Source: Candidatus Woesearchaeota archaeon
GTDB lineage: Archaea > Nanobdellota > Nanobdellia > Woesearchaeales > JABGXB01
Length of the DNA: 64,000 bases
Assembly (NCBI GenBank): GCA_018675975.1
Contig: JABGXB010000003.1
Location: 203,821 to 267,820 of the forward strand
Direction: 5' to 3'
The notes beneath the pieces are model-generated. The model had not been told where the DNA came from, ran no database searches, and saw only the letters and a program-made list of their open reading frames with translations. Below are positions 3,332 through 56,215 of the stretch, piece by piece (within the stretch, counting starts at the first letter, position 1; every line of letters starts with the position of its first letter). The position numbers and the translations under genes were made by a program.

Positions 3332-3625
3332 TAATTCCATAAATTTAACTAAGAAACCAATAAGTCCAATTATTAAAACACCAATTGCAGTAACTTTTAA
3401 TATACTTTTAAATTCTCTATCAGTTGGCTTTTTAGTTAAAGTTAATACTCTTCTATATTCAACCCATCTCTTATGTAAAAAGTAGCTTAACCCACCAATT
3501 AATAATACTAATGCAATTAATTTAATAATTAAGTCAATCATAATCTTAAAATTTTGTATGTATTTATAAAAGTTTATTATTATTAACATGGAGAAATTTA
3601 TATAAATGAATTCCATTTTTTTCAA
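3320..3625 (-). CDS. Small hypothetical membrane protein (2 predicted TM helices)
   Basis: 101 aa with two hydrophobic helices (LIIKLIALVLLIGGLSYFL; VTAIGVLIIGLIGFLV). No homology recognisable. Confidence 0.35.
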   Translation of the reverse strand: MKKMEFIYINFSMLIIINFYKYIQNFKIMIDLIIKLIALVLLIGGLSYFLHKRWVEYRRVLTLTKKPTDREFKSILKVTAIGVLIIGLIGFLVKFMELLFR

Positions 3626-5504: not shown

Positions 5505-6875
5505 TTAATTTAATAAAAATGGTTCACCCATACATGGAATAATATAATCTTCATATCTCCAAAAATCCGTTTCTTTACAATTCCATTCTTCAATTAATTC
5601 AATACCATCTCTAATTTCATTATCATTAATATCATTTGCATAATTTTGTGCTCTATTATTTTCAAAAGTTGGATTTCCACCTAATATAAAAAATGAAAAA
5701 TGTGAATCTTTAACTTCATTATTAATTAATTTAGAATTTCCTTTAATATCAAAACCCTCATGCCCACAATCTTTTGCAATATTATTTCTATATACACCAT
5801 TAGAATTAGCAATTGAAAAACAACCCCAAAAACCATGTCTTACTATTGAATTTTCAACAATTATATTTTCACTAGGATCAACAACCACTAAACAAGCTTG
5901 ACAATATTCAATTATTACATTATTAAAATATGCATCATCAGTATTTACTACTAATGATGACCAATCATTATAATATTTATCTTCTACATTTGATGTAAAC
6001 AAAATCGGATTATCTTTAGTCCCATTTGCATTAATTTTCCCATTAAAAAAAACAGATATATGTTTGTCAGTATATGGTTTTAATCTAGATGAATCTAAAT
6101 CATTAAATCCATCTGGACCTAATTCAATATGATGAATTGATGGAGTTTTATCTTTTGATTTAGTAAATTCAATACGTGTACCAGGAAGAATATTAATCTC
6201 CACCCATGGCATCATCATTAAATCTCCTTCAATTAAAATATTACCACTCCAAATTTGAGAAGAAAAAATTTCCCCACTCAATATCCTATCATAATCTTCT
6301 CTTTGTAAATTAATATAAGTATTTTCATCTATATTTTTTTTTATATCATAATCAATTTCAACTAAGTTATTTAATTCTTCATTATCTTCGATATCATCTT
6401 GATCTTCATCATTACTTTCTTCTTCATCTTCTTCAATATTATTTTCTTCTTCTTCTATGTCATCTTGATCTTCAGTATTAGTTTCTTCTTCAGCTTCTTC
6501 AGTATCGTTTTCTTCTTCGTTTATATCATCTTCTTCATCTATATCTTCTTGATCATCAGTATTAGTTTCTTCTTCAGCTTCTTCAGTATCATTTCCTTTT
6601 TCTATATCATCTTGATCTTCATCATTACTTTCTTCTTCATCTTCTTCAGTATCATTTTCTGTTTTCTTTTCTATTTCATTTAACTTAGAACTTCCGTTTA
6701 ATAATTTATCATTTAAATTAGCTTTATCATTATTTAAAATTTCATCACTTGAAACATTATTAATATTAAATTTATTTTCTTTATTATTATCAACATCTTT
6801 AAATAAAAATATTAAAAATATAGCTATAAATAAAAAAACAAATATAAATAATATTAATTCAAATTTATTCTTCAT
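5505..6875 (-). CDS. Secreted protein with a tandem-repeated poly-acidic region and a C-terminal right-handed parallel beta-helix domain
   Basis: Signal anchor (LILFIFVFLFIAIFLIFLF). Imperfect repeats of EEEESNDEDQDDIE and NDTEEAEEETNTDDQEDIDEE. The C-terminal ~250 aa show repeated short beta-helix rungs (NVIIEYCQACLVVVD, NSIVRHGFWG, NNIAKDCGHEGFDIKGNS, NNEVKD). Confidence 0.6.
   Translation of the reverse strand: MKNKFELILFIFVFLFIAIFLIFLFKDVDNNKENKFNINNVSSDEILNNDKANLNDKLLNGSSKLNEIEKKTENDTEEDEEESNDEDQDDIEKGNDTEEAEEETNTDDQEDIDEEDDINEEENDTEEAEEETNTEDQDDIEEEENNIEEDEEESNDEDQDDIEDNEELNNLVEIDYDIKKNIDENTYINLQREDYDRILSGEIFSSQIWSGNILIEGDLMMMPWVEINILPGTRIEFTKSKDKTPSIHHIELGPDGFNDLDSSRLKPYTDKHISVFFNGKINANGTKDNPILFTSNVEDKYYNDWSSLVVNTDDAYFNNVIIEYCQACLVVVDPSENIIVENSIVRHGFWGCFSIANSNGVYRNNIAKDCGHEGFDIKGNSKLINNEVKDSHFSFFILGGNPTFENNRAQNYANDINDNEIRDGIELIEEWNCKETDFWRYEDYIIPCMGEPFLLN
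6390..6680. repeat. Imperfect tandem DNA repeats encoding the poly-acidic segment of the 5505..6875 protein
   Basis: A block tcttgatcttcatcattactttcttcttcatcttcttca recurs at about 6395 and 6606. Related tcttcagcttcttcagtatc units recur between them. Confidence 0.5.
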
Positions 6876-26228: not shown

Positions 26229-26777
26229 ATGGTAAATACTATTAAACTAAAGTTAACAGGTTTGCAACAAAACATTTTGAGACTTTTATTTATAAAATCT
26301 GGAAAATCATTAAATCAAAGAGGAATAGCTAAAATTCTATCCGTTTCTCCACCTGCTATAATGAAAGCCATTCCTAATCTAGAAAAAAACAATTATATCA
26401 GAATAAAACAAGATAAAGAATCAAAAAGATGGTCTATTGAATTAAATAGAGATAATTATAAAATAATGTATTTGAAAAGAGTTGATAATTTAAAACAAAT
26501 ATACGAATCAAAATTACTAGAATGTTTAGAACAAGAGTTTGCTGGATCTACAATCATATTATTTGGAAGTTATTCAAGAGGCGAAGATACTGAAAATTCA
26601 GATACAGACATTGCAATAATTGGAAGAAAAGAAAAAAATATTAATTTAAATAAATATGAAAAACTATTAGATAGAAGAATAAATTTAAATTTTTATGAAT
26701 CATTTTCAAAAATACATAAAAACTTAAAAGAAAATCTTTTTAATGGAATTGTCCTATCAGGTGGGATAGAACTTTGA
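26229..26777 (+). CDS. Winged-HTH plus minimal nucleotidyltransferase (MNT) fusion; putative antitoxin component of a HEPN/MNT pair
   Basis: N-terminal wHTH (LNQRGIAKILSVSPPAIMKAI). The C-terminal motif ILFGSYSRGEDTENSDTDIAII is the MNT GSxxRG...SDxD signature. Confidence 0.7.
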   Translation: MVNTIKLKLTGLQQNILRLLFIKSGKSLNQRGIAKILSVSPPAIMKAIPNLEKNNYIRIKQDKESKRWSIELNRDNYKIMYLKRVDNLKQIYESKLLECLEQEFAGSTIILFGSYSRGEDTENSDTDIAIIGRKEKNINLNKYEKLLDRRINLNFYESFSKIHKNLKENLFNGIVLSGGIEL

Positions 26778-27229
26778 AAGCTATTAAAAATTTTAAAGAA
26801 TTTTTAAAAGAAGGCATAGTAAAAAAACAATCTCCTGATAAATCAAGAGCAAAATTTTTAATTAAAGAATCTGAAAATTCAAATAAATCATTATTGGAAT
26901 TAATAGAAAAAATTAAATTAAGTGATGTAAATGCCAATATGTTTATTAGATTATGTTATGACATTCTAATGGAATTAATAAGATCAAAAATGTTATTAGA
27001 TGGATATAATGCCTCAGGTCAAGGTGCACATGAAGCTGAAGTTTCTTATTTAAGATTATTAAATTTTAAAGAAAATCAGATACAATTTTTTAATTCATTG
27101 AGATATTTTCGAAATGGAATAATTTATTATGGTAAAATAATGGACAAAGAATACGCTCAAAAAGTAATTGATTTTACAATAGATAATTATAAACATATTA
27201 AAAAAACATTAGATAATGATATTCAATAA
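26774..27229 (+). CDS. Putative HEPN-domain protein partnered with the upstream MNT (motif degenerate)
   Basis: 151 aa all-helical. The start overlaps the MNT stop by 4 nt. LRYFRNGIIYYG resembles the HEPN Rx4-6H motif but has Tyr in place of His. Confidence 0.5.
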   Translation: MKAIKNFKEFLKEGIVKKQSPDKSRAKFLIKESENSNKSLLELIEKIKLSDVNANMFIRLCYDILMELIRSKMLLDGYNASGQGAHEAEVSYLRLLNFKENQIQFFNSLRYFRNGIIYYGKIMDKEYAQKVIDFTIDNYKHIKKTLDNDIQ

Positions 27230-29583: not shown

Positions 29584-30246
29584 TCAGAAATTATATTTTT
29601 TACTCCAATTAAAAGGATCTTTTCTCCATTCTTCTAATAATTGAATTTCTTGTTTATTAAAATAATCACTATTTTTTGCAACTTCAAATAATTGATCATA
29701 TGTTAATAGTGATCGAACTTGACATGGTGGATTTAAACTTTCAAAATCATTTTTTGAAACAGGAAACTCATAATCAAATATTGAAAAACAATAATTACAA
29801 TTTCCATTTTTATTTCGAATTGCATTTATTGCATTCATTGAAGTCTCACCAGTTGAGATTAAATCTTTAATTAAAATCACATTTTTATCTCTTAATAAAT
29901 CTGATTCAGAATCAATACCTTCTATTTGATTTTCCATTCCATGTCCCTTAGAATTTTTTCTAACATAAATTAATGGTTTTTCTAAAAGATCTGCTAAAGT
30001 AGTAGAAAAAGGAATACCTGAATTTGCAGTTCCTGCAATAACATCACATGCTATATTTTCATCAGAAATAATTTTTGCAAAACATTCAGCAAATAAACGT
30101 CTATAACTTGGATGTTCCAAAAATAATCTATTATCATTATATACAGGCATTATATCTCCTGCAACCCAGTTAAATGGTTTAGTTGGTCTTACTTTTACAG
30201 CACCAATATCCAAACCAAATTTTGCAATTTTTTTATGATAATCCAT
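29584..30246 (-). CDS. pyrE: Orotate phosphoribosyltransferase, paralog 1
   Basis: N-terminus MDYHKKIAKFGLDIGAVKVRP, PRPP-binding loop VILIKDLISTGETS. Length 220 aa. Confidence 0.75.
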   Translation of the reverse strand: MDYHKKIAKFGLDIGAVKVRPTKPFNWVAGDIMPVYNDNRLFLEHPSYRRLFAECFAKIISDENIACDVIAGTANSGIPFSTTLADLLEKPLIYVRKNSKGHGMENQIEGIDSESDLLRDKNVILIKDLISTGETSMNAINAIRNKNGNCNYCFSIFDYEFPVSKNDFESLNPPCQVRSLLTYDQLFEVAKNSDYFNKQEIQLLEEWRKDPFNWSKKYNF

Positions 30247-30264
30247 AATTATACCTCTAATAAT

Positions 30265-30933
30265 TTAATTATTATATTTTTGCGGAAAATGTTTTTTTCC
30301 CCATCCAAAAGGATCACTTTCCCACTCTTCTAATAATTCAAATTCTTTTTTATTAAAATAATTTTCTTCTTTTGCAGCATCTAATAATATTTTATATGTT
30401 AATAATGATCTTGTTTGACAAAGTGGTTCTAAATTCTGAAATGCAGATTCTGCTTTTTCCAATCCATAATTGAAAATTGAAAAACAATAATTACAATCTG
30501 CACCCTCAGCTCTTACAGCATTCACAGCAGCAATAGAACTCCCTCCAGTTGAAATTAAATCTTCAATTAATAAAACTTTTTTTCCTGATGGTTTAACATT
30601 CATACCTTCCATTTGTTTTTCCATACCATGAGTATTTGGTTTATTTCTTACATATACTAATGGTTTCATTAATAAATCTGATAAAGTAACACAAGGTGAA
30701 ACTCCTGCAGTTGAAGTTCCTGCAATAATATCACAATCAATATTTTCATCTTTAACAATTTTAGCAAAACCTTCTGCAAATAATCGTCTATATTCTGAAT
30801 ACCAAAGAAACATTCTATTATCATTATAAATTGGCATAAAATATCCTGAAGCCCATTTAAAGGGATCACTCGGCCTCAACTTAATTGCACCAATTTCTAA
30901 ACCAAATTTTGCTATTTTTTTTTGATAATCCAT
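30265..30933 (-). CDS. pyrE: Orotate phosphoribosyltransferase, paralog 2 (tandem with paralog 1)
   Basis: N-terminus MDYQKKIAKFGLEIGAIKLRP, PRPP loop VLLIEDLISTGGSS. The two paralogs look only moderately identical to each other by eye. Confidence 0.75.
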   Translation of the reverse strand: MDYQKKIAKFGLEIGAIKLRPSDPFKWASGYFMPIYNDNRMFLWYSEYRRLFAEGFAKIVKDENIDCDIIAGTSTAGVSPCVTLSDLLMKPLVYVRNKPNTHGMEKQMEGMNVKPSGKKVLLIEDLISTGGSSIAAVNAVRAEGADCNYCFSIFNYGLEKAESAFQNLEPLCQTRSLLTYKILLDAAKEENYFNKKEFELLEEWESDPFGWGKKHFPQKYNN

Positions 30934-31364: not shown

Positions 31365-32222
31365 TTATATTTTTAATAAATCCCTATCAATCTTTGAAAA
31401 AGCAAATATTTTTTTACCTAAATCTTTTAGTGATGCTCCAATAAAATATAATTCTATATCATCAATAATTATAAATCTATCATGTGATTTATCAAATTTT
31501 GTTATTTTAAGTTTACCATATTGTTCATTGAATTTATTTTTAGCAAATTCTAATTGCTTTGAAATAGTTAAAGTTTTTATTTCAATACTAACTTTTTTAT
31601 TTTTTTCAGATAATATTGCTAAAGTATTTGTATCAACATAATTATCAATTAGAACAATTGACTTTTTTGCTTTTTTTATAATATTTATAATAAATTTATA
31701 AGCATCATAAATTTGACCATTATAAAAAATTCCTTGTTCCAAACTGATTGTTTTATCTTCAATTGCATTGAATATTTTATCAAATTTAATATCATGTTTT
31801 ATTTGTTTTTTCTCTAACAAATCCATTCTGTAAAATAAATGTTCATTTTTAAAAATAAATTTTCGCATTTTCACAAAAGCACGCATTATTTCAATATTTA
31901 CTATGACTGCAATATTTGATTTTAAAATACCAGAAATCATCGCAACACCTTGTTCTGTAAAAACTAAAGGTAAAAAACCACCCGTATATTTTTTTGAAGG
32001 TATCGCATTTTGCGATACCAAAAAATCTAATTCTTCTTTTGTTACTTGAAACATAAAGTCAGAAGGAAATCTACTTTTATTTCTCTTAACTTGTTCACGT
32101 AAACGAAAAGGTTTAATTTCATATAATTTTGCTAAATTTCTATCTAAAATAACATTAATACCTCTTAATTTAAAAATATTGGGTTTAATATCTTCTTCTG
32201 TTTTTAGCTCATATTTTTTCAT
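31365..32222 (-). CDS. ORF6N-domain (phage antirepressor/KilA-N-related DNA-binding) protein with a C-terminal uncharacterised domain
   Basis: N-terminal LRGINVILDRNLAKLYEIKPFRLREQVKRNKSRFPSDFMFQVTKEELDFL matches the ORF6N domain consensus. Confidence 0.55.
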   Translation of the reverse strand: MKKYELKTEEDIKPNIFKLRGINVILDRNLAKLYEIKPFRLREQVKRNKSRFPSDFMFQVTKEELDFLVSQNAIPSKKYTGGFLPLVFTEQGVAMISGILKSNIAVIVNIEIMRAFVKMRKFIFKNEHLFYRMDLLEKKQIKHDIKFDKIFNAIEDKTISLEQGIFYNGQIYDAYKFIINIIKKAKKSIVLIDNYVDTNTLAILSEKNKKVSIEIKTLTISKQLEFAKNKFNEQYGKLKITKFDKSHDRFIIIDDIELYFIGASLKDLGKKIFAFSKIDRDLLKI

Positions 32223-32329: not shown

Positions 32330-32920
32330 TTAATTTTCTTCTTTTAATAAATTATTTATTATTTTAAAATCACTAAAAAAATCATCTTTTAAATGTCGTC
32401 TATAAATAATTGCAGCCGGATGATAAATAGGAACTACTTTTACATCCACACCTTGAAAATTAATTTCAATTAACTTACCATGAATTTGTGTTATGCCTTC
32501 AATTTTTTTCATTTCTTTTATATTGCCATTTGCAAGAACGAATTTTGATGAAAAATTTCCAAGTGTACATATTATTTTTGGTTTTAATAATTTAATTTGT
32601 TCAATTAAATAAGGAGTACATAATTCCATTTCTTCATTTTTAGGATCTCTATTTTCAGGAGGACGACATTTTAAAATATTTGCAATAAAAATTTTATTTA
32701 TATCAACATTGTTCTCTTCTAATAATTTATTTAAATTATCTCCAGCTCTGCCACAAAATGGAATACCTTGTTCATCTTCATTTTTACCAGGAGCTTCACC
32801 AATGAAAAGTAAGTCAGGATTTGATGACCCTCTACCAAAAACTACATTAGTACGAGTTTTAGATAATTCACATTTAGTACAAGAAGAACAAACATTTTTT
32901 AAATTTTCAAAGTCAGTCAT
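32330..32920 (-). CDS. udg: Uracil-DNA glycosylase, family 4 (4Fe-4S type)
   Basis: GEAPGKNEDEQGIPFCGRAGDNL, the motif at the catalytic-site position (GEAPG...), N-terminal Cys (CSSCTKCELS) and HPAAI near the C-terminus. Confidence 0.8.
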   Translation of the reverse strand: MTDFENLKNVCSSCTKCELSKTRTNVVFGRGSSNPDLLFIGEAPGKNEDEQGIPFCGRAGDNLNKLLEENNVDINKIFIANILKCRPPENRDPKNEEMELCTPYLIEQIKLLKPKIICTLGNFSSKFVLANGNIKEMKKIEGITQIHGKLIEINFQGVDVKVVPIYHPAAIIYRRHLKDDFFSDFKIINNLLKEEN

Positions 32921-41995: not shown

Positions 41996-42565
41996 TTACC
42001 TTTTAATTGTAATTTCTAACGGTACACTATTCTGTTTATCAGAAGATTTACAATTTCCTTCATCATCAGTTAAATCAGTAGGTTTAGTTGCACCAGCGAC
42101 AATACTTGCACAACAAACCTTAACAAACATAGATGGTTGTGGGCCCGTTTTATCATAATTTTCATTAACAGTCATAATAACTTTTGCTGCAATACCTTTT
42201 CCAAATGATAGTTTTTGTGGATCATTAACTAAAGTAAATATTAATTTATCACCAATTGTTTTATGTCCATCAACAGTAACCTGACAATATTCTTCATCAC
42301 GGGGATGAAAATAATTTATATCAAAAAACTCTTGACCTGATTTTTCAATTATAACACTTTTTGGTCTAACCTTTAAAGGGCTATCTTTTGTTGGTGGATC
42401 AATATCAGGAAAATCACTAACTATTGTAAGTAATTTAGTTTCTTGCTCTTGAAAAATAGTTTGCATAAAAACTAAAACTAATGATACAAAAACAACTGCA
42501 AGTATAATAATTACAATTGAATTCATGGACAATTCTAAACTTCCTTTTTTATTCATATAATTCAC
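41996..42565 (-). CDS. Pilin-like protein, paralog B
   Basis: N-terminus MNYMNKKGSLELSMNSIVIIILAVVFVSLVLVF. The C-terminal domain has a CC and an additional Cys (VKVCCASIV...GNC). Overlaps paralog A by 4 nt. Confidence 0.45.
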   Translation of the reverse strand: MNYMNKKGSLELSMNSIVIIILAVVFVSLVLVFMQTIFQEQETKLLTIVSDFPDIDPPTKDSPLKVRPKSVIIEKSGQEFFDINYFHPRDEEYCQVTVDGHKTIGDKLIFTLVNDPQKLSFGKGIAAKVIMTVNENYDKTGPQPSMFVKVCCASIVAGATKPTDLTDDEGNCKSSDKQNSVPLEITIKR

Positions 42566-43134
42566 CTCTTAACAACAAATGCCTTTTGAACACTTCTAAT
42601 AACATTATCCGAATCACAAACTAAACGATCAACTGACTCGCCTTTAATATTTGGAATTGATTTCGTTATTAAAGGAGTAGCACCAGTCTTACAACAAACT
42701 TCAATTTGATATACAGTTGTACCAACCGTTTGACCCATTGCAGTTATAGAAAATGCAACTTTTCCACCATCATCTAATTGAACTGTACTTGAAGGTAATA
42801 TAAATTTAACTTTAGTATCTGTAATAGTTGCTTCACTAATTGAAGCACCACATTCTTGTTTATCACCTAAATGTAAATATTCAACAGGAATTGTTCTAGC
42901 AGAACTTTCACCAATATTAATACTAACAGGATCTTCTGCTTGTACTTTTAAAGGATTCACACTTGTTGGCGGATTAACACTAGGAAATTGATCAATAACA
43001 TTTAAAACATTTTTTTGTTGTTCTCCAAAAACATTTTGAAAAAAAACTAATACTAATGATACGAAAACCACTGCTAATATAATAATTACAATGGAGTTCA
43101 TTGACATCTCCAATCCACCTTTTTTATTTTTCAT
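42562..43134 (-). CDS. Pilin-like protein, paralog A
   Basis: N-terminus MKNKKGGLEMSMNSIVIIILAVVFVSLVLVF. The C-terminal domain contains Cys (ECGAS...EVCCKTG...LVCDS). Confidence 0.45.
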   Translation of the reverse strand: MKNKKGGLEMSMNSIVIIILAVVFVSLVLVFFQNVFGEQQKNVLNVIDQFPSVNPPTSVNPLKVQAEDPVSINIGESSARTIPVEYLHLGDKQECGASISEATITDTKVKFILPSSTVQLDDGGKVAFSITAMGQTVGTTVYQIEVCCKTGATPLITKSIPNIKGESVDRLVCDSDNVIRSVQKAFVVKR

Positions 43135-53030: not shown

Positions 53031-53489
53031 ATGGAAACGTATGGTTTATTTGAAGTTGTTAAAAGAAGTGGAAAACCTAATTTAAAAACCAGTTTGGAAG
53101 AAAATGAAGAAGCAATATCGAGAATTGGTCGTTCCAAATGTATTTACACAATGTATTCTAGTATTCCAATTATTACTGCACTTGAAAATATTAAAATTAT
53201 TTTAAATAGAGAAAAACCAAATATATCATCCATAGACGATGAATATAAAATTTTATTTCAAAGTAGAGAACTTTTAGGAATGAGAGATAATACAATATCT
53301 TTTACATTATTTAATCGAGAAAGAGATTATCAAAATATTCCTAAAAAAAATAAACCAAAAAATAATACTGTAATAGAATTAAAATCAGATTATCCTCATA
53401 TTTTAACTACATATTTAGGTTTATTTTTATATCTTCATGATTTTGAAAAATATAAATTAGTTCACCATAAACTAATAGAAAAGAATTAA
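53031..53489 (+). CDS. Hypothetical protein (152 aa)
   Basis: No motif. Its last 29 nt (53461-53489) form the left copy of a direct repeat. Confidence 0.4.
   Translation: METYGLFEVVKRSGKPNLKTSLEENEEAISRIGRSKCIYTMYSSIPIITALENIKIILNREKPNISSIDDEYKILFQSRELLGMRDNTISFTLFNRERDYQNIPKKNKPKNNTVIELKSDYPHILTTYLGLFLYLHDFEKYKLVHHKLIEKN
53461..53489. repeat. Direct repeat, left copy (ttcaccataaactaatagaaaagaattaa)
   Basis: Matches 55429-55457 at 28/29 positions, and the preceding 4-6 nt are also similar. Together the copies bracket a ~1.9 kb segment. Confidence 0.7.
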
Positions 53490-53524
53490 CTTATTTTATA
53501 TACTAGTACTTTGATTATTATAAT

Positions 53525-53974
53525 ATGATTAAATTAAAATTATTTAAACAATCAAATGGATATTGTGGACCTGCTTGTCTAAAAATGATTTTATCTTTTT
53601 ATGAAATAAATAAATCAGAAAAATATTTAGCAAAAATAACAAAAACAAGTAGAATTAAAGGATGTAAAGAAAAAAATATTATTAAAGCTGCAAAAGAATT
53701 TGGATTAAAAGGTTATATTAAACAAAATTCTTCTATTCATGAATTAAAACAATTAATTAAAAAAAAAAATCCTGTGATTATTAATTGGTTTTCACCTGAA
53801 GAAGCTGGACATTATTCTGTAGTGATTGGTTTTAAAAATGATAAAATATTTTTAGCAGATCCACATTTTGGAAAAATAAAAAAACATAAAATCGAATGGT
53901 TTGAACAAAGGTGGTTTGATTTACCATTTCATCCAAAAGGTCCTGTTTTAAAAGAAATTATTGTATTAAAATGA
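53525..53974 (+). CDS. Peptidase C39-like (papain-fold, bacteriocin-processing-type) stand-alone domain protein
   Basis: Catalytic Cys context NGYCGPACLKMIL and His context GHYSVVIGF are spaced as in C39/C39-like domains. Length 149 aa. Confidence 0.55.
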   Translation: MIKLKLFKQSNGYCGPACLKMILSFYEINKSEKYLAKITKTSRIKGCKEKNIIKAAKEFGLKGYIKQNSSIHELKQLIKKKNPVIINWFSPEEAGHYSVVIGFKNDKIFLADPHFGKIKKHKIEWFEQRWFDLPFHPKGPVLKEIIVLK

Positions 53975-54436
53975 TTCTTTAAAATCTACTAAAATTTTTA
54001 CTGATGTATGAGCTTTTAAAAATTCAGTTAATTTGGATTCATTTTTATATAATAAAGTAGAATTTTTTAATCTTTTGTAACCTCTTTGAGAAACATCATC
54101 ACATTGATTTGTAACTTTATCCACTTCAAATTTTTTATAAATTTTATTCATAGCAGATTCAAAAGTAATAATGTGTATACCATATTCTTTTTTAAGAAAA
54201 TCAGCTTTGCATATTATATGTGGACTAATTTGAGCAAAGCTCCCAGTATGTAAATAAGTTTCAATACAACTTCCTAATTCAACTATAACATCCTTTGTAA
54301 ATCTTGGTTCAAATTCATCTAACATCAAATCAATTGTACTAAATACTTCAGGAAACATAGAATTAACTTTAGCATGAGTTAAATCTTGCTTAGCTAATAG
54401 TCCTTTCAAATGTATAACATAATCAGTCTTATTCAT
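53966..54436 (-). CDS. Hypothetical protein (156 aa)
   Basis: No motif. It lies inside the repeat-bounded islet. Confidence 0.4.
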   Translation of the reverse strand: MNKTDYVIHLKGLLAKQDLTHAKVNSMFPEVFSTIDLMLDEFEPRFTKDVIVELGSCIETYLHTGSFAQISPHIICKADFLKKEYGIHIITFESAMNKIYKKFEVDKVTNQCDDVSQRGYKRLKNSTLLYKNESKLTEFLKAHTSVKILVDFKESF

Positions 54437-54487
54437 TACAATACGTGAAATTTGAAATTTATAAAGCTTTACATGGTGGGAAAAATT

Positions 54488-54715
54488 AAAATCTATCCCA
54501 ATAATTAATATAAAGATTTTCTAATTCCCACGAATCAGGAAAACTATCAAAAGTTTTTACATCTATTAAACTTTTGTAAAGTGATAATATATTATATTTC
54601 ATATTAAATCAAAAAATAATTTAAAAGAATTAATTACAAAGATTGTCTATAATTTTCTTTTTGTTCTTCTGGAAACGTATATGCTGGATGATGTAAATAT
54701 ACAATGGTAATTTAA
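54488..54715 (-). pseudogene. Rearranged partial second copy of the UDG-like gene 55458..56093 (5' end plus promoter joined to the 3' end)
   Basis: 54488-54626 matches 55980-56116 with about 6 mismatches and includes the start codon and 38 codons (MKYNILSLYKSLIDVKTFDSFPDSWELENLYINYWDRF, then a stop). 54631-54715 matches 55454-55538 with about 4 mismatches. The order is circularly permuted relative to the intact gene. The junction contains agaattaa, which is the end of the direct repeat. Confidence 0.6.
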
Positions 54716-54911
54716 AAACAGAGCTTCCTGGAAATCTTCAAAATAAAAAATAATTTTTAAAAATATTTTGAAAGATAATTAAATTTAATATTGATAAAAT
54801 ATTAAAAATAGAAAATGCAATTATTATTAGAATAATAAAAATTATTAGTTTTTAGCCTAGGTAATAGAAACATTTATATAGTAAGTAAGATTTATCTTAC
54901 TTATATTTAAA

Positions 54912-55178
54912 ATGGATATAAGCATAACTAAAATGAGTTCAAAAGGTCAAATTGTAATTCCTGTTGAAATGAGAAGAAATATTAAAGAAGGAGAGAAACT
55001 AATTATAATTCAAAATAAAGATCAAATAATTATGAAAAAAGCGAGTTCATTAGATCAAACTTTTAATGAAGAATTAGAATTTGCTAAAAGAACAGAAGAA
55101 GCAGTCAAAAGAATTGAAAGTAATAAAGGAATTAAAATGGAATTTGATGATTTTATTAATGAAATGAAAAAGTGGTAA
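54912..55178 (+). CDS. AbrB/SpoVT/MazE-family antitoxin
   Basis: MSSKGQIVIPVEMRRNIKEGEKLIIIQ is the swapped-hairpin SpoVT/AbrB signature. 88 aa. The stop overlaps the next gene's start. Confidence 0.65.
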   Translation: MDISITKMSSKGQIVIPVEMRRNIKEGEKLIIIQNKDQIIMKKASSLDQTFNEELEFAKRTEEAVKRIESNKGIKMEFDDFINEMKKW

Positions 55179-55414
55179 AGGTAATATTTGATCAAAATTT
55201 TAAAAAATATTTTAAAAAAATAAAAAATAGTTCCATCAAAGAAAAAATTATTAAACAGATTTCAAAAATTAAAGATAATCCTGAAATTGGTAAACCTATG
55301 AAATATTCAAGAAAAGGAACTAGAGAATTGTATATTAAACCTTACAGAATTTCATATAAAGTTGAAAAAAACACAATTTTTATTTTTGATTTATATCACA
55401 AAGATGATCAATAA
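55172..55414 (+). CDS. RelE/ParE-superfamily toxin (type II toxin-antitoxin)
   Basis: 80 aa, basic, with the pattern KIKDNPEIGKPMKYSRKGTRELYIKPYRISYKVEKNTIFIFDLYHKDDQ typical of RelE/YoeB/ParE toxins. Overlaps the antitoxin by 7 nt. Confidence 0.6.
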   Translation: MVKVIFDQNFKKYFKKIKNSSIKEKIIKQISKIKDNPEIGKPMKYSRKGTRELYIKPYRISYKVEKNTIFIFDLYHKDDQ

Positions 55415-55428
55415 ATTGTATATTTTAA

Positions 55429-55457
55429 TTCACCATAAACTAATAGAAAAAAATTAA
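55429..55457. repeat. Direct repeat, right copy (ttcaccataaactaatagaaaaaaattaa)
   Basis: 28/29 identical to 53461-53489. Lies immediately upstream of the stop of the UDG-like gene. Confidence 0.7.
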
Positions 55458-56093
55458 TTACAAAGATTGTCTATAATTTTCTTTTTGTTCCTCTGGAAAC
55501 GTATATGCTGGATGATGTAAGTATGCAATAGGTAATTCACTAAAATTTTTTCTCATAAAACTCTCACTCCCCCTTCCAATACAAATAACACCCTTTGGAT
55601 TAAACATATCAATTGATTTTTTAATAAATTCTTTTGAAAACTCATAAGCCCCTTCATGTTTCATTATATCTCTAAATTTAACATTTCGTCTTCCATCTTC
55701 AACAACACCAAATGGAAAAACATTTGTCAAAAAATACTTAGAAAAAAAATCATCAAACTCATATAATTCTTGAATCATTGAAAATATTTTTGTTGCAGTT
55801 CCTTCAGTTTCAAGAACACCACTTAAACTTTTATATCCTAATTTATTTACTAAAGTATTTTCATCAGTAAAAGCAATACCAGTTTTATTACAACCCATCC
55901 TTCCTGGATTTAATCCAATAATTAAATTTCTACTCTCCTCTTGTTTAAAATCACTATAAAATTTATCTATAAAAAATTCAAATCTATCCCAATAATTAAT
56001 ATAAGGATTTTCTAATTCCCACGAATCAGGAAAACTATCAAAAGTTTTTACATCTATTAAACTTTTGTAAAGGGATAATATATCATATTTCAT
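55458..56093 (-). CDS. Uracil-DNA glycosylase superfamily protein (SMUG1/family-3-like)
   Basis: IGLNPGRMGCNKTGIAFTDE parallels the SMUG1 motif GMNPGPFGMAQTGVPFGE. FLTNVFPFG and a C-terminal HHPAY (HPSP-like) are present. Confidence 0.5.
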   Translation of the reverse strand: MKYDILSLYKSLIDVKTFDSFPDSWELENPYINYWDRFEFFIDKFYSDFKQEESRNLIIGLNPGRMGCNKTGIAFTDENTLVNKLGYKSLSGVLETEGTATKIFSMIQELYEFDDFFSKYFLTNVFPFGVVEDGRRNVKFRDIMKHEGAYEFSKEFIKKSIDMFNPKGVICIGRGSESFMRKNFSELPIAYLHHPAYTFPEEQKENYRQSL

Positions 56094-56144
56094 GTTAAAT
56101 CAAAAAATAATTTAAATATAAAGATTATTGTGATTAAAAGAAAA

Positions 56145-56215
56145 TGCGCCTGCTGGGATTCGAACCCAGGCCAGAAGCTTGGAAGGCTCCGATTCTACCA
56201 CTAAACTACAGGCGC
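56145..56215 (-). tRNA. tRNA-Gly (TCC)
   Basis: Acceptor GCGCCUG/CAGGCGC, D-arm GUUUAGUGGUAGAAU, anticodon stem GGAGC/GCUUC with loop CUUCCAA, T-arm CUGGG-UUCGAAU-CCCAG, discriminator A. Length 71 nt. Confidence 0.8.

Follow-up and report, generated by a model that had tools for sequence, protein, structure and literature searches.

The islet and its insertion site

The stretch of DNA analyzed here, a window of 64,000 nucleotides from contig JABGXB010000003.1 (assembly GCA_018675975.1), derives from a marine DPANN archaeon, a member of the Candidatus Woesearchaeota with a genome of about 1 Mb and a GC content of 23%, the same as that of the window. Within it we focus on a small accessory islet at positions 53490 to 55457, where an insert of 1,968 bp lies precisely between the stop codons of two genes that converge, the orphan ORF152 and an intact SMUG-like gene of the UDG superfamily. 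The insert has three parts: a 1.7-kb accessory block that carries a peptidase gene, a gene of unassigned function, and a toxin-antitoxin pair; a patch of 236 nt copied from the UDG gene; and, at the right edge, a second 29-nt end of ORF152. On the plus strand, the locus reads P1-X1-S'-p-Q'-X2-P2-Q-R-S-tRNA. Here, P stands for the 29-nt end of ORF152, X1 and X2 for the two halves of the accessory block, and Q-R-S for the intact UDG gene as read on that strand (Q, 3' end; R, middle; S, 5' end plus 23 nt upstream). The features of the locus are as follows.

53031..53489, plus strand: ORF152, an orphan gene of 152 aa from the list of open reading frames (ORFs); the target gene that supplies the repeat
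53461..53489: direct repeat copy P1, the native 3' end of ORF152 (..HHKLIEKN*), terminating exactly at the stop codon
53490..54480: block X1 (991 nt), in which a 35-nt AT-rich leader is followed by the genes for C39 and unk156, which converge, and by the 44 nt that precede unk156
53525..53974, plus strand: stand-alone C39 cysteine peptidase, 149 aa (PF03412, E = 1e-17)
53966..54436, minus strand: unk156, 156 aa, an orphan of unassigned function from a very small family
54481..54625, minus strand: S', copy of the UDG 5' end (codons 1 to 41 plus 23 nt upstream), identical to 55972-56116 at 140 of 145 positions
54623..54633: p, the last 11 nt of the repeat, AAAAGAATTAA, in the P1 variant; shares AAA with S'
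54634..54716, minus strand: Q', copy of the UDG 3' end (stop codon plus the last ~26 codons), corresponding to 55458-~55541
54717..55428: block X2 (712 nt), in which the toxin-antitoxin operon has a 195-nt AT-rich leader before it and a 14-nt tail after it
54871..54914: imperfect palindrome over the antitoxin start, core TAAGTAAGAT..ATCTTACTTA, with 21-nt arms (76% complementary) and a 2-nt loop
54912..55178, plus strand: AbrB/MazE-fold antitoxin, 88 aa (PF04014, 7.9e-9; TIGR01439, 2e-8)
55172..55414, plus strand: RelE/ParE-family toxin, 80 aa (PF05016, 1.6e-10; TIGR02385, 1.9e-7)
55429..55457: direct repeat copy P2, with A for G at 55451; touches the UDG stop codon with no spacer
55458..56093, minus strand: intact SMUG-like UDG-superfamily gene, 211 aa (PF03167, 2e-8); source of S' and Q'
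56145..56215, minus strand: tRNA-Gly(UCC), called by ARAGORN and Rfam, 51 nt upstream of the UDG start; a neighbor only

The repeat that bounds the insert, TTCACCATAAACTAATAGAAAA(G/A)AATTAA, comprises the last eight codons and the stop codon of ORF152. Its two copies are identical at 28 of 29 positions (31 of 33 when the preceding TTAG/TTAA is counted), and it is unique in the window, where just two matches were found at up to three mismatches; none of 100 shuffles produced two. In P2-Q, the stop codon of ORF152 and that of the minus-strand UDG gene adjoin directly (TAA followed by TTA), and the adjacency of these two gene ends is present once more, at p-Q'. Since it occurs twice, with the stop codons abutting in P2-Q, the adjacency would appear to be ancestral and the block an insertion. 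Hence, the most parsimonious reading of the sequence is that ORF152 and UDG originally met with zero spacer and that 53490-55457 was inserted between them, including a target duplication of 29 nt. ORF152 itself had no match in Pfam, NCBIfam, or PHROGs, and its sole real homologue among 5.8 billion proteins was itself, listed as a hypothetical protein of Ca. Woesearchaeota.

The patch in the middle of the insert is made up of 145 nt of the UDG 5' end, the AAA microhomology, the last 11 nt of ORF152, and 83 nt of the UDG 3' end. The junction from S' to p lies in an exact 3-nt microhomology, AAA (54623-54625), and the flanking S and P sequences are alike at 11 of 15 positions (P = 0.0014 at the base composition of the window). 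Q' shows three mismatches in 54634-54705, followed by a 1-nt indel, and was aligned by tblastn with UDG residues 189 to 211 at 95.7% identity. All duplicated pairs have diverged by 3 to 5% (S'/S, 5/145; pQ'/P2Q, 4/83; P1/P2, 1/29) and do so equally (Fisher P = 0.73 and 1.0). S' carries the changes P30L and E39stop. Both positions are invariant in an alignment of 10 homologues, so that the fragment, to judge from its substitutions, is a decaying copy of the intact UDG gene that drifts as a pseudogene. The intact gene matches PF03167 at 34.7 bits (cutoff, 24.3), and its nearest solved structures are 5h0j (1e-15) and SMUG1 (1oe4; 1e-4), consistent with the putative assignment as SMUG-like. No further copy or paralogue of the islet was found elsewhere in the window.

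Much of this had been noticed in an initial annotation of the same DNA, which described an islet of about 2 kb between direct repeats at 53461-53489 and 55429-55457; the repeat is indeed real and nonrandom. It also listed a C39-like peptidase, a gene of unassigned function, and an AbrB/RelE pair between the copies, in agreement with Pfam and NCBIfam, as well as a partial UDG copy in permuted order, which a self-comparison of the sequence recovered as the 140/145 match plus the 3' piece. Its remark that the end-to-start order fits a circular or tandem junction holds as well, S'-p-Q' being a head-to-tail junction at AAA. Other details needed adjustment. The coordinates given for the remnant were off by 3 to 7 nt, which is immaterial, but the claim that it contains the whole promoter does not stand, since S' includes only 23 nt of upstream sequence and thus at most half of the TATA region. 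Likewise, the end of the repeat does join the two pieces, although the shared part is the last 11 nt (AAAAGAATTAA) and not an octamer.

The tRNA-Gly gene was said to lie about 50 bp beyond the intact UDG gene, and 51 nt was measured. The role implied by calling the islet its neighbor was not borne out, however. The tRNA gene is 688 nt away from the right repeat, with the whole UDG gene between tRNA and islet; the window contains no partial copy of tRNA-Gly, and this tRNA is the sole Rfam match. Given the lack of a partial copy and the distance beyond UDG, the proximity of the tRNA is incidental. As an attachment (att) site, tRNA-Gly was rejected because the repeat is the 3' end of ORF152 and the window holds no tRNA-derived copy.

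The accessory block and its genes

When the 236-nt patch is taken out, 44 plus 195 nt remain between unk156 and the antitoxin gene. This is an ordinary divergent promoter region, which gives the accessory genes the look of a single contiguous and self-contained block of 1.7 kb (C39 on the plus strand, unk156 on the minus strand, and AbrB and RelE on the plus strand) that received the patch. Every transcription unit of the block has its own AT-rich upstream region. The X1 leader holds a TATA-like ATTTTATATA, and the 44 nt upstream of unk156 hold TTTATAAA at about -28; by comparison with the archaeal TATA consensus, both are putative promoter elements. We also considered S' as a promoter donor for unk156 but found it unneeded, as unk156 has TTTATAAA at its disposal within the 44 nt that belong to the block.

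The peptidase matches PF03412 at 64.6 bits (cutoff, 22) and has an intact Cys/His/Asp triad. Its motifs CGPA, HY.VV, and DP line up with the peptidase domain of ComA, to which it was aligned (5xe8/3k8u) at 9e-10. It is not fused to an ABC transporter, nor is an ABC transporter encoded within 6 kb on either side, and no gene for a double-glycine peptide substrate is found nearby; its neighbors are ORF152 and unk156. The latter had no match in Pfam, NCBIfam, PHROGs, or PADLOC and just four remote relatives (130 to 165 aa) among 1.84 billion representatives. Its AlphaFold2 model is moderately confident (pLDDT, 75) and mostly helical, and no fold in PDB or BFVD matched it at E < 0.5.

In its domains and its layout, the AbrB-RelE pair conforms to the canonical type II toxin-antitoxin module. 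The antitoxin (PF04014, 35.8 bits; cutoff, 24.7) comes first, and the GTG start of the toxin gene (PF05016, 41.8 bits; cutoff, 23) overlaps the antitoxin stop codon, so that the genes share 7 nt. An autoregulatory operator may plausibly be provided by the palindrome (54871-54914) that spans the start of the antitoxin gene. Taken together, the islet probably expresses a putatively active cysteine peptidase, the unk156 protein, and a putative RelE-type toxin-antitoxin pair under its own control.

Occurrence in other assemblies and the surrounding window

Four look-ups of exact proteins, with 23 contigs read in each, led to 13 independent assemblies as distinct places of occurrence. Proteins of the islet were found at 100% identity in the NCBI metagenome-assembled genomes (MAGs) GCA_018673795.1 and GCA_018653045.1, as well as in further assemblies from ENA, JGI, and Logan, Saanich Inlet among their sources, and in a JGI contig of 1.03 Mb (JGI 3300072015). 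Gene order was identical in every contig that spans the site, and the fetched loci were 99.88 to 100% identical to the window; for contigs L001 to L027 (Saanich Inlet 2009-2010, several ENA studies, a Logan run, and two NCBI MAGs), this identity extended over up to 11.9 kb. Indel polymorphism at the islet was not seen in the 13 assemblies, all of which represent one clonal population (99.9 to 100% identity) and were compared as contigs rather than reads. The same arrangement without indel polymorphism is the outcome that the initial annotation had set against its own proposal, but it is a weak refutation because the contigs represent one clone and no closer outgroup exists.

Beyond this clone, the nearest homologues of the lineage-specific genes are at most 58 to 65% identical or absent. 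Homologues of UDG (up to 58% identity) at seven loci of other Woesearchaeota MAGs had no neighbor and no tRNA-Gly in common with the window. A scan of GTDB genomes anchored on PurA found nothing, and one of JGI metagenomes anchored on DHH returned a single contig, identical and with nothing new.

Some of the fetched loci deviate in ways that touch the repeats. In independent assemblies, contigs break at 54527/54544, in S', and at 55486/55506, in Q (L003, L009, L019, L021, and L022); such recurrent breaks at this locus can be ascribed to the repeats of 83 to 145 nt. One of these contigs, L021 (SPAdes contig ERZ4201008; coverage, 4.8), has at 3385-3411, corresponding to window positions 55431-55457, a P2 that is converted to the S'-p sequence AAAATAATTTAAAAGAATTAA. 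The substitutions fall at window positions 55440, 55445, 55446, and 55451; the contig stops 29 nt further on, and the variant is absent from the other 30 fetched loci. For this hybrid P2, either the internal patch has converted the P2-UDG junction or the assembler erred at the repeat. Another contig, L016 (696 bp; MEGAHIT), has a right part of 430 nt that is 100% identical to window 53318-53747 (the 3' third of ORF152, P1, and the start of C39) and a left part of 267 nt that is unrelated, has 34% GC, and is joined in frame. We considered a diverged relative of ORF152 followed by C39 and rejected it, as the protein similarity was not significant (158 of 2,000 shuffles). L016 may be a chimeric assembly or a genuine mosaic and is uninformative either way.

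The locus is flanked by housekeeping genes, with those for ribosomal proteins L35Ae and L15e and for PurA on one side and tRNA-Gly and the genes for a DHH/DHHA1 protein, an AP-endonuclease-fold protein, and RNase HII on the other. Farther away, the window contains a second, unrelated gene of the UDG superfamily (196 aa; 32330-32920, minus strand), which adjoins a gene with an ORF6N domain (285 aa; 31365-32222). ORF6N domains are common in antirepressor-like proteins of phages and mobile elements. Tandem phosphoribosyltransferase paralogues (PF00156; 220 and 222 aa) at 29584-30933, with 72% nucleotide identity over 689 nt, are an older tandem gene duplication in the same genome. Tandem paralogues are also found at 41996-43134, where two unannotated genes (189 and 190 aa) share 75% nucleotide identity over 188 nt, and an internal tandem repeat of about 150 nt (82 to 90% identity) lies at 6376-6679 inside the ORF at 5505-6875. 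At 26229-27229, a nucleotidyltransferase gene (NTP_transf_2/Polbeta; 182 aa) overlaps one for a 151-aa protein with no Pfam match; this pair may be a second toxin-antitoxin module, of the MNT/HEPN type.

Origin of the islet and related systems

How did the islet arise? We favor an account, on which we place about even confidence, in which it is the old, fixed product of illegitimate recombination that needed no recombinase. Foreign or relocated DNA would have entered via homology-anchored or microhomology-primed joining or via template switching, much as in homology-facilitated illegitimate recombination (HFIR) or microhomology-mediated break-induced replication (MMBIR). A return to the local template at a position 29 nt upstream of where it had been left would then have produced the flanking duplication, and an excursion through the neighboring UDG unit, from the end of S back to p-Q, the permuted patch. 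All of this would predate today's clonal population by far and may have taken a single episode or several in close succession. That the surviving product has both stop codons restored would be due to selection to keep ORF152 and UDG intact. Such a process accounts for the arbitrary length of the repeat, for the microhomology at the sole informative junction (S to p, the only one with both parents known), for short non-colinear patches with a source within 1.5 kb, for the equal age of the duplicates, and for the missing hallmarks of an element.

Several points weigh against this account. A search for the donor of the 1.7-kb block gave no lead: unk156 and ORF152 are orphans, and no close relative of C39, RelE, or unk156 turned up in viral contigs. 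Microhomology can be checked at only one of five junctions, while a one-step history of template switching requires about five switches, and the argument from equal age is built on very few substitutions. Bacteria and eukaryotes have documented cases of HFIR and MMBIR; for DPANN archaea, we know of none. Furthermore, integrase-mediated integration classically leaves this same signature, a repeat whose end falls exactly on a stop codon so that the target gene is made whole, and selection for intact ORF152 and UDG would give rise to the same picture. Finally, the argument from addiction, that is, retention by the toxin-antitoxin pair, is an analogy.

The alternative with most in its favor, albeit one that we consider unlikely, is a decayed element of the Campbell type, in which a circle with the block and a 29-bp attP identical to the 3' end of ORF152 was integrated by a recombinase of the tyrosine or serine type. 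The gene for this enzyme would have been lost since, or the enzyme would act in trans from another part of the 1-Mb genome or from a virus or plasmid. Such an integration would form the structure in one step, with P1 and P2 both stemming from a single integration. It fits the 29-nt repeats, which enclose the insert in full and leave the target gene complete through its stop codon; a toxin-antitoxin and peptidase cargo typical of small islands; and a block that is self-contained with its own upstream regions. The initial annotation likewise read the structure as a possible scar of an integrative or excisive element. Yet a recombinase was not found in the islet or within about 52 kb: none of the five islet ORFs matched an integrase, transposase, or other recombinase (Pfam, NCBIfam, PHROGs, and PADLOC, the last of which gave no matches at all), and the precomputed Pfam annotation of the window from about 9.7 to 62 kb contained none either. 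The repeat lies outside the tRNA gene and has no inverted-repeat core. Terminal inverted repeats were absent (the best end-to-end inverted alignment was equalled by 1,845 of 2,000 shuffles), as were hairpins or inverted repeats at the borders (53440-53540 and 55400-55470). The islet does not differ from the genome in composition (GC, 0.20 to 0.23 versus 0.232). The circle would already have to hold a permuted scrap of the very locus that it targeted, and it would have integrated through the shortest homology available (29 nt) instead of the 145 nt of S' or the 94 nt of pQ'.

Predicted junctions were searched for as well. The empty site would read ..AAATTAG-P-TTACAAAG.., and a circular junction would read ..ATTTTAA-P-CTTATTTT... 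The exact empty-site pattern had no match in JGI metagenome contigs, and neither the circle-junction pattern nor the bare 29-mer had one in IMG/VR viral contigs, among which close relatives of C39, RelE, and unk156 were also lacking. The absence of empty sites, circles, and variants fits a fixed, inactive scar, as seen in contigs from one clone. Thus, of the features by which integrative elements are recognized, the flanking direct repeats are present, whereas an integrase and an att site overlapping a tRNA or transfer-messenger RNA (tmRNA) gene are absent from the regions examined.

Other classes of mobile element were considered and rejected. For an insertion sequence, transposon, or miniature inverted-repeat transposable element, terminal inverted repeats and a transposase are missing, and a duplication of 29 nt is far above typical target-site duplications. 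An integron cassette array or a cluster of attC sites lacking an integron integrase (CALIN) would have boundary palindromes, which an inverted-repeat search (with no formal attC model) did not find, and there is no IntI gene. For a dif/Xer-type site, as used by integrative mobile elements exploiting Xer (IMEX), the 29-mer lacks the two-arm inverted symmetry, as judged by eye.

A local cycle of duplication and deletion, the other option raised in the initial annotation, appears improbable. Here, a unit of about 670 bp (55447-56116; the last 11 nt of ORF152, UDG, and 23 nt upstream) would have been duplicated in tandem via AAA, and insertions and deletions would later have put the accessory genes in place of most of one copy. 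A tandem duplication of this unit at a microhomology would be expected to leave just such a join as S'-p-Q', and the window has other tandem gene duplicates (29584-30933 and 41996-43134). However, with non-UDG DNA on both sides, the junction fragment is found left of the intact copy; under the model, a full copy should have the join on its right. A tandem junction also yields just the 11-nt p, such that the full 29-nt P2 demands extra copying. The architecture is not reproduced unless at least three to four more independent insertions or deletions are invoked, and yet all duplicates are equally diverged.

Conceivably, though we would give this idea little credence, the S'-p-Q' patch is the fossil of a circular copy of the ~670-bp UDG unit that was closed at the 3-nt microhomology and later linearized and recaptured in the incoming block. 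If true, this would mean that single genes can be shuffled through circles, with no recombinase, in a DPANN archaeon whose recombination toolkit is minimal, and it would be consistent with the total lack of synteny around UDG homologues in related Woesearchaeota.

It is very unlikely that the islet is currently excising or polymorphic in the population. The P2 of L021, converted to the S'-p sequence, does suggest that the repeats still interact, and several contigs break inside repeats. Against this, breaks at 54527/54544 and 55486/55506 are the usual behavior of assemblers at repeats of 83 to 145 nt, all site-spanning contigs from the look-ups are alike, the junction searches in metagenome and viral contigs were negative, and the repeat copies are 3 to 5% diverged in a population that is at least 99.88% identical. 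An assembly artifact, in the form of a misjoined repeat, can practically be dismissed: although the 83- to 145-nt repeats break some assemblies, different samples assembled with MEGAHIT, with SPAdes, and by JGI all gave the identical sequence, which the 1.03-Mb contig and two NCBI MAGs share.

Returning to the favored account of illegitimate recombination, one may ask how an arrangement so rich in repeats has persisted. The toxin-antitoxin pair lies inside all three pairs of direct repeats (P1/P2, 53461-55457; S'/S, 54481-56116; and pQ'/P2Q, 54623-55541), and any deletion mediated by these repeats would therefore remove the antitoxin gene. By analogy with toxin-antitoxin-stabilized genomic islands (e.g., PMC8978831 and PMC5006074), postsegregational killing might plausibly explain why the arrangement survived long enough for the copies to diverge by 3 to 5%. 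We infer that the islet is an immobile, fixed accessory islet that resembles a small island of this kind.

The locus is a clean, datable case of an ultra-small DPANN genome (about 1 Mb, 23% GC) that gained four accessory genes without recognizable mobile-element machinery, and the insertion took place precisely at a zero-spacer convergent junction. It also illustrates that direct repeats near a tRNA gene, even around typical island cargo, are insufficient to call an integrative element. Its importance is modest, and no long-standing question becomes testable through it.

The islet shares with islands and archaeal elements integrated by a tyrosine recombinase at tRNA genes or gene 3' ends (SSV and pNOB8 types) the flanking direct repeats, the rebuilding of a gene 3' end by the repeat, and a small accessory cargo with a toxin-antitoxin module. 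It differs from them in that no integrase was found, the repeat lies outside a tRNA gene, no compositional signal is apparent, and neither excision products nor empty sites were found in the contigs searched; in addition, it carries a permuted scrap of a flanking host gene. The toxin-antitoxin pair is like chromosomal type II modules in its domain pair, gene order, 7-nt overlap, promoter palindrome, and location inside a deletable island, but this one belongs to an archaeal host, and its toxicity, neutralization, and stabilizing effect are putative. The C39 protein belongs to the same fold family as the N-terminal bacteriocin-processing domains of ComA and peptidase-containing ABC transporters (PCATs) and has the same catalytic Cys/His/Asp, but at 149 aa it stands alone, with neither an ABC transporter nor a double-glycine substrate gene nearby. 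As in tandem-duplication join points, the 5' end of a gene is joined head to tail to its own 3' end via a short microhomology; in the islet, however, there is no second full copy on either side, the flanks being the upstream regions of unk156 and the toxin-antitoxin operon.

The closest parallels are with HFIR (treated, e.g., in PMC6382021) and with MMBIR and fork stalling and template switching (FoSTeS). The islet differs from these in having a single informative junction, and its assignment is by anatomy only. It resembles them in the 3-nt microhomology junction, the target duplication of arbitrary length (29 nt), the templated patches of 145 and 94 nt that come from within 1.5 kb and are arranged in non-colinear order, and the fact that no recombinase is needed. 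Hence, the islet is best read as another instance of an already known kind of event, an insertion scar of illegitimate recombination.

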